Assembly (NCBI GenBank): GCA_018238545.1
Contig: JABCTC010000006.1
Location: forward strand, 40,609-104,608
DNA: 64,000 bases
Source: Candidatus Heimdallarchaeota archaeon
Lineage (GTDB): Archaea > Asgardarchaeota > Heimdallarchaeia > Heimdallarchaeales > Heimdallarchaeaceae
Direction of reading: 5' to 3'
Shown piece after piece: positions 59,503-64,000 of this stretch; position 1 is the first letter of the stretch; each line of letters begins with the position of its first letter. A program made the position numbers and the translations under genes. Below the pieces are notes generated by a model. That model was not told where the DNA came from. It did no database searches and saw nothing but the letters and a program-made list of their open reading frames with translations.

Positions 59503-60630
59503 CTATCTTTCAATATACGTACTTTTAACTTTTGTTTGTTTTCCGCCTTTTTTTCTGTTTTTTAAAAACTTGGGGTGGAATGTCTCATTAAAATTTTCAA
59601 TTTCTTTTAACAATTGCATTTGATGTTGAAAGTTTTCATTGTTTACTTGTCCTCTATAACTGTTAATTTCAACCTTTATATCAACGTATTCACAATAATT
59701 CTTACATATATTATGGTATTTTTTATGATGTTGATTTGATTTATTTGTGACTAAAAGTTCTACAAATCTCTGATCTTGATGTAGGTTTGTCAAATAGTAG
59801 TTGATGATTATTTGCTGTGTTACTAATACAGCATTAACAAATAAGATCAATGATTTAGTCAATCTGATACCCGATAAGTTTTCAGAATATTTGATTACGT
59901 TATTTTCCATTCTTCTTGATAAAGGTATTAGATATGGAATGCTATGTCCTGCTTTGTGCATCACATTTTCTTTTTGATTATGAGAAATCTCTTCAATATG
60001 AAGTTCAGGTATCCACATGGCTTTATGAAAATAGTTATTTCGAATTTGTATGGCAAATCGACAAAATTTTGGAATATGTGAAAACAAAGATGACAAAAAC
60101 TCTCTTTCCCAATCATATACTTGATGAACAAATCTCAATTCTTCCTCTGATAAACTAAATTCATCTAAATTGGCGATATTATAGATGTATTCAAACATCA
60201 ATTTTTCTGGACTATTGTTAATGAATGATATTAAATCACTGTAATCCAAACCATTTTCTATTATTTTTGTCTTTTTCTTTATATTTTCTTCTTGTAAACT
60301 GTAGATTAAATTCATCAACATTTCAATTTCTCTGAAAACCTTAGAAATAACATCTATTGATTGATCAGTTTCCAGCAACTTTAACCAGAAATATCTTTTA
60401 TCCAATGAATCTTTGTTTTCTTCTGTTTCATCTTTATTCATTAGTTCAATCAGCTTATCTTGCTCCTGTCTGTACAAGTTAGAAAACTCTAAATAAGCAT
60501 CAAAAATAGGAATTTTTGACTTTTCTATTGCATATTGTACTAATACTAATAGGTCATTCAAGACTTGTTTCTGATTTTTTTGCTGTTTAGAAAAAGATTG
60601 ATATAACGAAGAACTTTTACGAGATCTCAT
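59503..60630 (-). CDS. Hypothetical helical protein with RxxxxH (HEPN-like) motif
   Basis: IRNNYFH at the end of a predicted helix; very AT-rich; defence-island context. Confidence 0.5.
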   Translation of the reverse strand: MRSRKSSSLYQSFSKQQKNQKQVLNDLLVLVQYAIEKSKIPIFDAYLEFSNLYRQEQDKLIELMNKDETEENKDSLDKRYFWLKLLETDQSIDVISKVFREIEMLMNLIYSLQEENIKKKTKIIENGLDYSDLISFINNSPEKLMFEYIYNIANLDEFSLSEEELRFVHQVYDWEREFLSSLFSHIPKFCRFAIQIRNNYFHKAMWIPELHIEEISHNQKENVMHKAGHSIPYLIPLSRRMENNVIKYSENLSGIRLTKSLILFVNAVLVTQQIIINYYLTNLHQDQRFVELLVTNKSNQHHKKYHNICKNYCEYVDIKVEINSYRGQVNNENFQHQMQLLKEIENFNETFHPKFLKNRKKGGKQTKVKSTYIER

Positions 60631-60822
60631 ACTACCCAGTTAATCTTGAGATATTTAATCGTTTCAGAACTTTGGATAAATTGTTCAAACTTTTGAAAAT
60701 ATGAACAGAGAGGTATTTGGTATACTGTTGCCTAAAAAAATATGTAACAATAGAACAAACCAATACTTGAAAAGTTGGAAGAAACCTTTCAAATAGGTAA
60801 CACACAATTAAGCTTAATCAAA

Positions 60823-62193
60823 TTATTCTAGTTCTTTCATTCTATTATTTAATCTGACCTTAAATTTTGCAAGAAGAGACTTTATTGATTTTCCTAATAC
60901 AAAATTTTGCATAGGAAGATTATTTTTTCTATAATATTCATTAATTCCTATTAAAATATCCAGTGCAAATGATTTCTGAAGGGATAATATATCTAAATCC
61001 TCAAATTCGGAGAAATGGCTGTTTTGATTTAGTTCTATTGTACTTCTAATAAAATGATTTAATTCGTTTATTTTTGTGCGCTCTAGAATGTCATAACAAT
61101 AATCTAGTAATGAAATTAATGTATAAAAATCATTTTTATATTTGTATTTAGAAATCTCTGACATTGTTTGAAAATCCATTGGCATTTGCTTATACAATGC
61201 TTTATTTTCATCAATTCCTACAGCCAATAAAGCTGTCATTCTTATAAAACATGCTAAACATGTTCCGCAATGGTAATGTCCAATATCTCGCAAATTGTTT
61301 TTCTTTAGTTTGTCACGCCTATTTGGGTGAGTACATGAATAGGAAAGGTGAATAAGTTTTTTCCTGTCCTTCAAGGTTTTAACTACATCAGCTTTAGTTT
61401 CTTTTGCTAATGAATCAGATAGTTTTATGCCAGTTAAATCAAAAGCAATATTAGCTATTTTTTCCATTAAATAGGGCGATACTGTTCTTGTTGGTTCTAT
61501 TGAAATGTCAAATTTAGGTAAGGTTGCAATAGCACCGTTTTCTGGTATAATTACTTCTTTTGCATTTACTGAATCGGCTATTGCTATTCCATTAAGAGCA
61601 TATGCTACAGCTCTACTATTGATTATGCCTTGCTCTTTTTCTTGTTTACATTTAATTCCAAAATAGTTTATCTCCACCAAATCTAGTCTGATCTTGAACA
61701 TTTTTTCCAGTTCTGATACCAGATTTCTTACATTTCTTGTTACTTTTTTGTTATGATTTGTGTAACATAACAGTATTTTCTCTCTATTTTCGATACTTCT
61801 CACTGTTTGTGTAAGTGAATCTAATCCTCCTGAAAATAATATTACTTTATCATATTTTTGATTATTTTCAATAATCTCTGAATTATATTTTATAGGCATT
61901 ATTTTCAATTTGAATCTATCTGTAAGACCGTTAAAGAAATATATTAACTCTTGAGTTATGCTTTGTATTTTTTGGAAATATTTATCATTGCAAAAGAACA
62001 CTGAAAATTCTTGCTCATTGAAAACAGAACTGTTTACATAGTATAGATAAGCACCATATTTAACAAGATCAATTCCCTTATCTGACAGAATGACTTCTTT
62101 TTTATCTTTACTTTCAACTGAAATAAGTTTTTGTATTTCTTTTCTATTTTTACTCTCAAGTATTTGATATATTTTTATGTGTCCTTGAACCAT
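60823..62193 (-). CDS. qatC: QueC-like PP-loop enzyme of the QatC type
   Basis: LFSGGLDS, IPENG, TRT, TKAD, SYSC...HCGTCLACFIR; N-terminal extension absent from housekeeping QueC; 456 aa. Confidence 0.8.
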   Translation of the reverse strand: MVQGHIKIYQILESKNRKEIQKLISVESKDKKEVILSDKGIDLVKYGAYLYYVNSSVFNEQEFSVFFCNDKYFQKIQSITQELIYFFNGLTDRFKLKIMPIKYNSEIIENNQKYDKVILFSGGLDSLTQTVRSIENREKILLCYTNHNKKVTRNVRNLVSELEKMFKIRLDLVEINYFGIKCKQEKEQGIINSRAVAYALNGIAIADSVNAKEVIIPENGAIATLPKFDISIEPTRTVSPYLMEKIANIAFDLTGIKLSDSLAKETKADVVKTLKDRKKLIHLSYSCTHPNRRDKLKKNNLRDIGHYHCGTCLACFIRMTALLAVGIDENKALYKQMPMDFQTMSEISKYKYKNDFYTLISLLDYCYDILERTKINELNHFIRSTIELNQNSHFSEFEDLDILSLQKSFALDILIGINEYYRKNNLPMQNFVLGKSIKSLLAKFKVRLNNRMKELE

Positions 62194-62211
62194 TCAGCTC
62201 CGCTCCGTTTA

Positions 62212-62520
62212 TTATTTGTGTATTTTTAGTATATCTGCTATTATTCTTCTTATTTTTTGTTCATTTTCATTATTTTCAAAGTCTTCAATGGATTTAATAC
62301 CTTGTTCGTTCAATTTGTTCACTATTTTTGAAGCAATTTTCTTTGCAGTTTCTGCCACTAAATCTTCTATATTTTTACGTATCTTATTGGGATCGCCCTC
62401 TGTTTCTTCAAAGCTATAAAATTCTTCTGTAAAGTTTCTTTTAATTAAATCCAATGTAAGATTCTTTAAATAGTTTTCAACAACAGATTGGATTATTTGA
62501 TTTAAAGTTAATTCTTTCAT
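62212..62520 (-). CDS. Small helical protein, possibly the C-terminal half of a QatB-like protein
   Basis: Own AGGTGA Shine-Dalgarno; ATG immediately follows the upstream TAA in frame; lies directly upstream of qatC. Confidence 0.55.
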   Translation of the reverse strand: MKELTLNQIIQSVVENYLKNLTLDLIKRNFTEEFYSFEETEGDPNKIRKNIEDLVAETAKKIASKIVNKLNEQGIKSIEDFENNENEQKIRRIIADILKIHK

Positions 62521-62913
62521 TTAATCACCTATAAGTCTTGAATAGCTCTCTTCTATTGCCCAAGTCGCTGCTCTTTTTGCATATTGACCAATATTTCTTC
62601 CCAAAAAAGGTCCGCCTATTGCAGCCATTGTGACATCTGCTAATCCTGATGTAAAGCCCTCTATAGCAAATGTTCTTGCAGCCTCAATTGCTCCTGCGGA
62701 TCTAGATCCTGTCTTTTGATACATTTTATAACCCGCAATTCCAGATTTAATTACATCATATATTGTTCCTACACCAGCTAAATTAGCTGCAAGATCTATT
62801 GTTTTATCTGCCATTTTTGCAAAATTATTTTCTTTTATAGAAGAACGAACCTCTTCAGAAATTTTTTTATATTTGCTATCATTCAATGGAGCAGACCTAG
62901 AAGCGGTACCCAT
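62521..62913 (-). CDS. QatB-like N-terminal protein starting MGTAS
   Basis: ATG 62913 is preceded by GAGGGA; MGT start; Gly/Ala-rich helices; 130 aa. Confidence 0.55.
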   Translation of the reverse strand: MGTASRSAPLNDSKYKKISEEVRSSIKENNFAKMADKTIDLAANLAGVGTIYDVIKSGIAGYKMYQKTGSRSAGAIEAARTFAIEGFTSGLADVTMAAIGGPFLGRNIGQYAKRAATWAIEESYSRLIGD

Positions 62914-62949
62914 AATTTCCCTCATCAATTAATTGTATGGTGAATTAAT

Positions 62950-63690
62950 ATGTTTTCAGAATATAAATTTTATGATATTCATAGTCATTTACACACTTGT
63001 TTGAACAAAATGTTGTTTGATGAACCATTTCTAGCTAAGCTTAAGCAAATGTCTATCGGCATTATCTTAGCTACTGAAGATTTTTTAGATTTTGAAGAAG
63101 CTACAAGAATTAGTACTAGATTGGGTTCCGTATTATCTGTAGGTCTTGGTTTTCATCCTAAAAATTATACCTATTTTGAACAGTTTTCCAGAATTTTATT
63201 CGATCGAATGGAAAATGTAGATATAATATCTGAAATTGGATTAGATAAGAATTCTAAGTGTCCAATGAACCAGCAAGAAACCTATTTATATGAGATGCTT
63301 TCCAATCTATCTTCCACACACATAATACAATTTCACTCCCCATCTTTGTCTTCTTCAATCTTGGATATTTTATCATCGTTTCATTTCAAGAAAGTTATTT
63401 TTCATCGTTTCAATGGTACTATGAATGAGTTAGAGCGAATAATTGATCAAGGATACTTCATTTCTGTTAATGTTGATGATATTCCAGCATTGTCTCGCAA
63501 CAATCTGATACAAAATTGTCCTCTTTCACAGATTTTAACAGAAACCGATTTTCCATATTGTAAGAATAAAAATTATTTAACTATTCTTCCCAAGCTAATA
63601 GAAAAGATTGCACAGATAAAAAATAGGTGTAAAGATGAAATTAGAACAACCATAAAAACAACCATCAATAATATTTTAGTTGAAAACTGA
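62950..63690 (+). CDS. tatD: TatD-family hydrolase (QatD-like)
   Basis: DIHSH, GFHP, SEIGLD, FHS, IFH, LTETDFPY. Confidence 0.9.
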   Translation: MFSEYKFYDIHSHLHTCLNKMLFDEPFLAKLKQMSIGIILATEDFLDFEEATRISTRLGSVLSVGLGFHPKNYTYFEQFSRILFDRMENVDIISEIGLDKNSKCPMNQQETYLYEMLSNLSSTHIIQFHSPSLSSSILDILSSFHFKKVIFHRFNGTMNELERIIDQGYFISVNVDDIPALSRNNLIQNCPLSQILTETDFPYCKNKNYLTILPKLIEKIAQIKNRCKDEIRTTIKTTINNILVEN

Positions 63691-63754
63691 AAATGCAGAC
63701 TTTTGAGTATATACTTCTACTATACATTGTTTCTTTAATTAAACCCAATGTAAC

Positions 63755-63925
63755 ATCCTTGAGCCAAAAGACATCCATACTAACTTAATCTCTTTGCATG
63801 ACCTCTTCACAAATGAATTTCTTGAAACGTTCAATTATCTTCCTTTCTTCAGGATTATTAGGGTTGTAGCATTTAATGAAGTCTTTCAGTTCTTCATAAG
63901 TGAGAGGATTCTGTTTACGAGTGAA
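63755..63925 (-). pseudogene. hsdM: Fragment of type I restriction-modification methyltransferase HsdM C-terminus
   Basis: Manual translation FTRKQNPLTYEELKDFIKCYNP...ERFKKF.CEEVMQRD*VSMDVFWLKD; internal TAA at 63785-63787 and no intact upstream frame. Confidence 0.75.
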
Positions 63926-64000
63926 TATTGATTTCTCCTCTTTTTCTGTTTACATATAGCTGAACACAAGCTTTTTGTTATGCTTATAGTATCTTACTTT

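Follow-up and report, generated by a model that had tools for sequence, protein, structure and literature searches.

A candidate Qat-type immunity cassette with a predicted two-gene QatB in a Heimdallarchaeota archaeon

QatABCD is reportedly an anti-phage system, described by Gao et al. in 2020. Structures of its QatB-QatC core have been determined (PDB 9y01/9y02, 9zee/9zef, and 9vlk/9vll; PMC13279940, PMC13376578, PMC13639016). Against some phages, a 1:1 complex of QatB and QatC suffices, and the MGTS start of QatB, its Gly2, and the PP-loop of QatC are essential (PMC13279940). QatB loses its Met1 (PMC13376578), its GTSKAY peptide was detected in NDG-modified form (PMC13639016), and it also touches the nuclease QatD (PMC13639016, PMC13434339). 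In type IV CBASS, Cap9 performs the same N-terminal glycine chemistry on CdnD (Wassarman et al., 10.1101/2025.04.06.647259; PDB 9nto), and this is the only case in which NDG chemistry has been firmly shown. A survey of the QueC family found the QatC cluster to be mainly bacterial and left several archaea-restricted clusters unanalyzed, an Asgard defense census gives "Gao Qat" by name only, and neither a split QatB nor archaeal Qat variants are described in the QatBC structure papers PMC13376578 and PMC13639016. Here, we analyzed a 64,000-nucleotide stretch of DNA (the window) at the end of a 104-kb contig (JABCTC010000006.1, here C86) of a Heimdallarchaeota metagenome-assembled genome (MAG) that is 91.8% complete in 128 contigs (G000). 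Close to the contig end lies a four-gene cassette that we read, with a probability of about 0.7, as a self-contained, horizontally mobile Qat-type immunity cassette without QatA, in which QatB is encoded by two translationally coupled genes.

The features of the cassette, in window coordinates, are as follows (aa, amino acids; HMM, hidden Markov model; AF2, AlphaFold2; SD, Shine-Dalgarno):

60662..63756 (3.1 kb), no strand: whole four-gene cassette, the block in common with genome G024 at 92.3% nucleotide identity
60823..62193, minus strand: QatC-type QueC-family enzyme, 456 aa (family HMMs, PDB match, AF2 model)
62212..62520, minus strand: 102-aa helical protein, pI 5.5, predicted C-terminal half of QatB (hhalign, joint model)
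62518..62523, minus strand: TAA-ATG junction of the 130-aa and 102-aa genes (GGT GAT TAA ATG AAA), a conserved stop-start boundary
62521..62913, minus strand: 130-aa protein, pI 9.4, start MGTASRSAP, predicted N-terminal half of QatB (SD, conserved MG start, joint model)
62914..62949, no strand: divergent spacer of 36 bp from the 130-aa gene to the TatD gene (read from sequence)
62950..63690, plus strand: QatD-type TatD-family nuclease, 246 aa, HxH (type II) (family HMMs, residue alignment)

All of the open reading frames (ORFs) named in a preliminary description of this DNA, that is, the 456-aa QueC-like enzyme, the 102-aa and 130-aa ORFs, and TatD on the opposite strand, are present. The archaeal setting that it proposed also holds, as the gene for ribosomal protein S7, at a distance of 2 kb, has 97% identity to those of Heimdallarchaeota MAGs, which identifies the host as an Asgard archaeon.

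The cassette resembles QatABCD in encoding a three-domain QatC-type enzyme with SGGxDS, TxT replacing Tyr/Asp, and a zinc Cys4 site; in having, directly upstream, a partner with a Met-Gly-Thr start and a modeled QatB helical fold; and in including a QatD-type HxH TatD nuclease. It differs in that the predicted QatB is two polypeptides (130 and 102 aa) instead of one of ~250-290 aa, with a tail of ~11 residues instead of 30-90, no evident QatB Pro16/Trp18 pattern, and Ala rather than Ser as the fourth residue (MGTA versus MGTS). No QatA KAP-family NTPase was found, QatD is divergent and not part of a co-directional operon, and the enzyme is without D(x)4R(x)7WxR, has SP in place of HP and a longer C-terminal extension, and is at most 30% identical to canonical QatC. 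The host of the cassette is, moreover, an Asgard archaeon. With Cap9-CdnD the cassette shares a QueC-family enzyme and a partner starting with MG plus a small residue, so that its chemistry may by analogy be similar; unlike type IV CBASS, it is without a CD-NTase, Cap10, or effector.

The QueC-family enzyme and the TatD-family nuclease

The best family model for the 456-aa enzyme is QatC (NCBIfam, 1.5e-30, 106 bits; PADLOC, 1.9e-27), Pfam QueC giving only 1e-10 and the housekeeping QueC model TIGR00364 only 23.9 bits against a cut-off of 150.3 bits. The enzyme consists of an N-terminal extension, a PP-loop (SGGLDS) QueC core, a four-cysteine zinc site, and a long helical C-terminal extension. 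Among solved structures its sequence matches QatC 9zee_B (7e-10) and 9vlk_A (3e-6), with the QatC-specific TRT aligned. An AF2 single-chain model (pTM 0.79) aligned with QatC 9y02_B with a Z of 26.1 and a root-mean-square deviation (rmsd) of 3.2 Å over 355 residues, model residues 5-421 corresponding to chain residues 28-452, and this alignment takes in the N-terminal extension, the core, and the C-terminal extension. By comparison, the alignments with housekeeping QueC (Z 14.6) and with Cap9 (Z 12.3) cover only the core (residues 113-328). When the enzyme was checked against the published QatC signature (PMC13329287, PMC13279940), SGGLDS, Arg194, IPENG, TRT (EPTRTVSP), TK (ETK), and the four zinc cysteines (C...CGTCLAC) were all present. 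The published cluster-specific motifs of QatC are D(x)4R(x)7WxR, HP, and CGxCxxRR (PMC13329287); in the last of these the RR is RM in our enzyme, and its C-terminal extension is longer than that of canonical QatC.

The 456-aa enzyme is a three-domain QatC-type protein and not a housekeeping QueC, Cap9, or Dpd-type enzyme, which bears out the QatC-like identity first suggested for it. The PP-loop Rossmann core and zinc-binding cysteine cluster are common to housekeeping QueC, but the structural alignment with QueC is core-only, there is no que-gene context, and the genome has its own queC (140 bits) beside queD on contig C71. Since the QatC match extends over three domains and a genuine queC exists elsewhere in the genome, a grouping with housekeeping QueC is ruled out. 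Unlike Cap9, which has a minimal fold and Tyr/Asp, the enzyme has the QatC extensions and TxT. Its closest relative is a metagenome fragment with 49% identity, there is no other close homolog, and the remaining relatives, including annotated QatCs from canonical qatABCD operons, are at most 30% identical.

For the TatD protein, the best family model is QatD (NCBIfam, 1.1e-24; PADLOC, 7.5e-23), with Pfam TatD_DNase at 1.5e-29, and the closest solved structure by sequence is QatD 9xsn_A (2.4e-12), ahead of generic TatDs. The metal-binding and catalytic residues of QatD are H8, H10, H60, E86, H124, H148, and D196 in Acinetobacter baumannii numbering (PMC13434339), and in our alignment H11, H13, H69, E95, H129, H152, and D200 of the TatD protein are invariant with canonical QatDs. 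To judge from these residues, the protein is QatD-like with a predicted complete two-metal site. Encoded on the opposite strand, with 36 bp between its gene and the start of the 130-aa gene, it fits the flipped QatD that had been proposed; QatD is likewise inverted in L064, an otherwise canonical metagenomic operon.

The two small genes upstream of qatC

The 130-aa and 102-aa proteins were unmatched in Pfam, NCBIfam, and PADLOC scans; the Pfam copy used was without PF28083, and genuine QatBs also give no Pfam match. Richer hhalign profiles were made from nine variant pairs and 64 QatBs. With these, the concatenated pair matched the 64-sequence QatB profile with a P of 2.9e-5 and a probability of 74%, in an alignment that is unbroken over the junction, residues 114-130 of the 130-aa protein and 1-65 of the 102-aa protein corresponding to QatB columns 151-233. 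The 102-aa family by itself matched the C-terminal third of QatB (columns 176-269) with a P of 1.7e-4.

The AF2 model of the pair is globular, with ten helices (pLDDT 74.8, pTM 0.75). Its low-confidence parts are residues 1-11 and 87-110 (Gly/Ala-rich, in the 130-aa protein), and the boundary between the two genes lies between helices. In a Foldseek search of 350,542 chains, QatB 9y02_A and 9y01_A ranked first and second, with weak match statistics (E 0.13, probability 0.77, TM ~0.3). VIA-align gave QatB a Z of 8.5 with an rmsd of 3.9 Å over 165 residues, model residues 13-230 corresponding to chain residues 64-277, and the runner-up chain a Z of 5.3. Nothing above Z 5.3 was found in a separate scan of 48,161 representative chains with the pair model, which indicates that the QatB match is specific and does not reflect a generic helical background. 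From this evidence, which is of moderate strength, we conclude that the pair very probably represents a QatB divided between two helices. Both the two-piece QatB of the preliminary description and its expectation that the small ORFs resemble QatB are thereby upheld, by the structural ranking and by the hhalign match of the concatenated pair.

The N-terminus of the 130-aa protein depends on the choice of start codon. Its mechanical ORF begins at an upstream TTG (62928), the ATG lies at 62913, and the stop at 62521-62523 on the minus strand. A start at the TTG (MMREIMGT...) was rejected, because in the 92%-identical copy of G024 this codon is not in frame and the SD-like element stands before the ATG. 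In the window this element, GAGGG, is 7 nt upstream of the ATG, and a GAGGG/GGAG element is found 6-8 nt ahead of the ATG-GG start in five of five loci examined. MGTAS is therefore the true N-terminus, and the SD-supported start noted from the sequence at the outset stands. The first nine residues, MGTASRSAP, are unchanged in a homolog that is ~47% identical overall. Every one of the eight variant loci with an intact 5' end has an MG start (MGTAS in four, MGS in two, MGR in one, and MGH in one), one of them as TTG-GGA; canonical QatBs start with MGTS in 47 of 55 cases.

The 130-aa and 102-aa ORFs are in a common frame, with a single TAA between them and an ATG immediately after it. The stop is TAA in the window and in locus L045, TAG in G024 and L043, and the small genes overlap out of frame in L046 (TGA/ATG) and in L055 (by 11 nt). 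The stop has thus been kept while its codon drifted, and it can be attributed neither to codon reassignment or an assembly error nor to a nonsense mutation of recent date; in view of the differing stops of the relatives, we also rejected the idea that the in-frame TAA is recoded or read through. When 1.84 billion representative proteins were searched exhaustively with a profile of the read-through pair, the search retrieved just seven proteins, all separate products of 102-130 aa that correspond to one half or the other, and no fused form or protein of QatB length. The 102-aa family is always encoded by its own gene of ~100-110 aa just upstream of the QatC-like gene. As read from these comparisons, the two-gene state is ancestral and not a mutation, and the TAA-ATG boundary appears suited to termination-reinitiation coupling. 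The ratio of nonsynonymous to synonymous substitution rates (dN/dS) is 0.21 for the QatC-type gene, 0.24 for the 102-aa gene, 0.45 for the 130-aa gene, and 0.25 for TatD, so that all four cassette genes are under purifying selection.

At the other end of the 102-aa gene, its stop is in frame with the qatC start (window 62194-62214, minus strand: TAA TAA ACG GAG CGG AGC TGA ATG), and an SD-like element, GGAGCGGAG, lies between the two; all three operon genes consequently occupy one reading frame.

Distribution, transfer, and gene neighborhoods

Any QatC-like gene is present in only six of 399 Asgard genomes. The TatD-bearing two-gene variant is confined to two of the 399, our genome and G024 of another genus in the same family, and is found in none of 23 genomes of the same genus. 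In G024, the four genes are found together on a contig of 270 kb. By blastn, window positions 60662-63756 match positions 4606-1511 of this locus (L041) over 3097 bp with 92.3% identity, and the shared block stops 66 bp after TatD and ~160 bp after qatC, beyond which the flanks are unrelated. Between the two genomes, core genes have an identity of only 67-76%, and in G024 they are found on another contig, which implies a recent exchange of the block between genera. The four genes were transferred and conserved as a single unit. A search for virus-borne cassettes with 102-aa family probes found nothing in viral contigs, and the same probes had no match in JGI metagenome contigs.

Just beyond the TatD stop, a piece of ~60 nt (window 63700-63760) resembles part of the 102-aa gene (62406-62466), with 89% identity over 27 nt. 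This remnant sits at the edge of the transferred block and is also present in G024 (L041, 1509-1568); a duplication or recombination of the cassette may have left it behind. No convincing terminal repeats or integration signatures were detected at the cassette edges.

The window's contig ends at window position 64000, 310 bp past the TatD stop, in a 310-bp terminal sequence that is single-copy in the assembly, and absence of QatA is hence not judgeable from contig C86 alone. When the whole genome was searched with the QatA family, the best E was 0.3, and a KAP_NTPase search gave only weak matches on other contigs (27 bits on C102). Beside the G024 cassette there is no ATPase among the annotated genes, which reach ~1.5 kb past TatD and 4.5 kb past QatC, and no QatA match was found in any of the variant loci L043, L045, L046, L055, L065, L111, and G181. 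The earlier observation that no ATPase adjoins the cassette is therefore matched in the shared 3.1-kb block, the G024 flanks, and the genome-wide search. Standard defense finders would miss the cassette, because a QatA and a match to the QatB model are both absent.

The relatives of the cassette have the same core order: a protein with an MG start, then a helical protein of ~100-136 aa, then the QatC-like enzyme. Their accessory genes differ, being ASCH in L055 and L065 and an HD enzyme in L046 and G181, with no ASCH in L111; the divergent QatD-type TatD is the accessory of the window lineage, G024, and L045. The archaeal two-small-gene modules L055, L065, L046, G181, and L111 thus share the core gene order with our cassette, and none has QatA, but the QatD-type TatD (also in G024 and L045) makes ours the variant nearest to classical Qat in gene content. 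In G181 (L058, G181:C69 164-3437, minus strand), a 71-aa protein from an internal MGTAS start and a 96-aa protein precede a 478-aa QatC-like enzyme, and the fourth gene encodes a distant relative (E 1e-4), 392 aa long, of the HD-domain partner of L046; all four genes are co-directional.

Of 80 QatC-like loci from metagenomes, 46 have a complete canonical ABCD operon and 15 a canonical one truncated by the contig end; 10 encode long stand-alone QatC-like proteins, and two (L065 and L111) have two small genes. The stand-alone loci (L071, L079, L097, L107, L108, L113, L115, L124, L137, and L143; 536-733 aa stop-to-stop) have no QatA, QatB, or QatD match nearby and may represent a different QueC-based system; some database relatives have PF18742 fused at the N-terminus. 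The two-piece lineage is a minority branch, mostly archaeal in this small sample, with swappable accessory enzymes and no QatA.

Other Qat genes in Asgard archaea take different forms. G173 has a single 187-aa QatB starting with MGTSKS. G025 (L042, G025:C35 4330-8984) has a fully canonical co-directional qatABCD, whose QatB starts with MGTSSIFDGP and shares 60-94% identity with proteins from Bacillota and metagenomes. The contig is 12.5 kb and has two large ORFs that read as IS21-type istA/istB, unconfirmed by family search. Canonical qatABCD may thus also occur in this archaeal family, as a recent inter-domain transfer or, alternatively, a mis-binned bacterial contig; with a Bacillota-like QatB on a contig that may be bacterial, we did not take G025 to show that Heimdallarchaeia have a classical Qat of their own.

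Gene neighborhoods of the relatives include recognizable defense genes. In L043 (1-1747, minus strand), a CBASS-type oligonucleotide cyclase (PADLOC, 1e-46) and a TIR-domain protein adjoin the relative cassette divergently, which points to a defense-island context; this cyclase, on the other strand and with the protein start MTVQ, belongs to its own neighboring system. The G024 flanks encode a TPR fragment, a Schlafen/AlbA_2 protein, an NYN/HEC-09-like protein, and a YaaC-like protein, the NYN/HEC-09 gene adjoining the cassette.

In the window itself, GC content across the cassette stretch is ~28-30%, compared with ~36-39% farther upstream. The 130-aa gene and TatD, on either side of the 36-bp divergent spacer, are each preceded by an SD-like element, so that each promoter would have to overlap the opposite gene. 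A scan for bacterial-type promoters and terminators, a type of scan ill-suited to archaea, gave signal at the level of shuffled sequence. Downstream of qatC by 192 bp, on the same strand, lies a 375-aa helical ORF (window 59503-60630, minus strand) with an RxxxxH motif (IRNNYFH), for which no family match was found in Pfam, PADLOC, or NCBIfam and no paralog in the genome. We considered it as an effector replacing QatA and rejected it: besides being without a family match, it is beyond the block shared with G024 and missing beside the G024 cassette, and so does not belong to the conserved unit. At the contig end, a short ORF without an obvious start codon (window 63796-63950, minus strand) reads ...YEELKDFIKCYNPNNPEERKIIERFKKF... 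up to the break.

Proposed mechanism and competing explanations

The host could supply the substrate for QatC-type chemistry. Its 7-deazaguanine cluster on contig C71 (G000:C71:43717-47287; L050, L061) comprises a QueE-like radical-SAM gene, ~2 kb upstream, and DUF366, QueD, and QueC, followed by a 233-aa ORF without a family match; the host also encodes an archaeosine tRNA-guanine transglycosylase (arcTGT). With these genes present, 7-carboxy-7-deazaguanine (CDG) should be available, in line with the host source of CDG that had been put forward. By analogy with QatBC, the mechanism is likely an N-terminal glycine deazaguanylation fed by the host queE/D/C. Met aminopeptidase would expose Gly2 of the 130-aa protein, while the 102-aa protein would complete the helical domain and supply much of the docking surface on the QatC-like enzyme. 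The enzyme would activate CDG from the host QueE-like/QueD pathway with ATP at the SGGLDS loop, and Gly2 would be the acceptor of the deazaguanine. The tagged complex, together with the TatD nuclease, would restrict archaeal viruses, with no need for QatA, just as the bacterial system can do without it against some phages. That the cassette is Qat-type with a split QatB we consider highly probable; that its chemistry and antiviral role are as proposed, an argument from the characterized relatives, seems slightly better than an even bet.

Several observations weigh against this reading. The curated QatB HMM (NF041924) matches neither the 130-aa nor the 102-aa protein. A first hhalign comparison with QatB using five-sequence profiles gave non-significant probabilities of 0.6% and 1.5%, the weak alignments being nonetheless co-linear, and the 130-aa family alone is still non-significant with the richer profiles. 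The structural match comes from an AF2 model of the pair as one artificial chain, with X at the stop and just four sequences, and a Z of 8.5 is moderate for an all-helical model. The flexible tail before helix 13-27 is ~11 residues, model residue 13 aligning with QatB residue 64, whereas that of canonical QatB is 30-90 residues (PMC13279940). The scores of the enzyme and of TatD are far under the NCBIfam equivalog cut-offs for QatC (NF041925, 106 of 280 bits) and QatD (87 of 230 bits), and in the enzyme the motif D(x)4R(x)7WxR is missing (an alignment gap) and HP is replaced by SP. The sole possible defense-type neighbor in the window is the unassignable 375-aa ORF. Even the canonical QatC reaction was not reconstituted in one study (PMC13279940).

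Alternatively, the enzyme could be QatC-like and the small proteins an unrelated helical pair, recruited as Gly-tipped substrate and adaptor of a distinct QueC-family tagging system that only resembles Qat. We consider this improbable. The silent QatB HMM, the first hhalign runs, the 130-aa family taken alone, and the Foldseek values (E 0.13, TM 0.3) speak for it, as do the Gly/Ala-rich segment and a short tail unlike that of canonical QatB. Against it, QatB is the unique top structural match, co-linear over both proteins; the richer profile alignment spans the junction with a P of 2.9e-5; and an MGT[S/A]S start, a position directly upstream of qatC, and co-occurrence with QatD are common to the pair and QatB.

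Somewhat less probable still is that the same chemistry serves a non-antiviral role, such as housekeeping or regulatory tagging in nucleic-acid repair or a stress response that uses TatD. The window cassette adjoins ribosomal and metabolic genes, TatD enzymes act in DNA repair too (PMC13434339), and the task of tagged QatB is still open even in bacteria (PMC13279940). Such a role would, however, sit poorly with the patchy occurrence (2/399 Asgard genomes, 0/23 of the same genus), the recent horizontal transfer between genera, and the defense-type neighbors in L043 and G024. The accessory partner varies (TatD, HD, ASCH) in a manner typical of defense modules, and the closest characterized relatives are anti-phage systems.

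A QatA-type ATPase encoded at another genomic site, or in sequence that was not assembled, might instead act in trans as part of a dispersed four-component Qat. The incompleteness of the genome, its 128 contigs, the contig end 310 bp after TatD, and the weak KAP_NTPase-like matches on other contigs leave room for one, but we regard it as very improbable: the best genome-wide QatA match has an E of 0.3, the G024 cassette, inside a 270-kb contig, has no ATPase among the annotated genes beside it, the transferred block extends only 66 bp past TatD, and QatA is matched in none of the seven variant loci searched. That the cassette is an inactive, decaying qatABCD remnant with QatA lost, QatB broken by a nonsense mutation, and QatD inverted, as the single in-frame TAA, the absence of QatA, and the low family scores might suggest, is largely refuted by a stop that is kept with different codons and is out of frame in more distant relatives, by purifying selection on all four genes with catalytic residues intact, and by the absence of a fused homolog among 1.84 billion representative proteins.

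Within the favored reading of a Qat-type cassette with a split QatB, the division might itself be functional. The Gly/Ala-rich, glycine-tipped 130-aa protein would be a payload and the 102-aa half would hold it on the enzyme, the tagged payload then leaving to act alone. Once free, it might serve as a signal or an effector, for instance by turning on the TatD, HD, or ASCH partner or through an effect on membranes. We think this scenario as a whole unlikely.

At issue in the widespread anti-phage Qat system is what QatC does to QatB, and then what tagged QatB does. On our analysis, protein tagging of the QatC type would reach into the Asgard archaea, where it could draw on a complete 7-deazaguanine pathway, and its genes form a 3.1-kb unit that was recently transferred between genera. 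The cassette indicates that a QatBC core persists without QatA, which agrees with bacterial deletion data. The natural division of the predicted QatB between helices would provide an experimental handle, since the acceptor half is separable from the other half. Should the tagged payload indeed leave the complex, the split systems would offer a dissection, made by nature, of the role of tagged QatB, the central question of Qat immunity.

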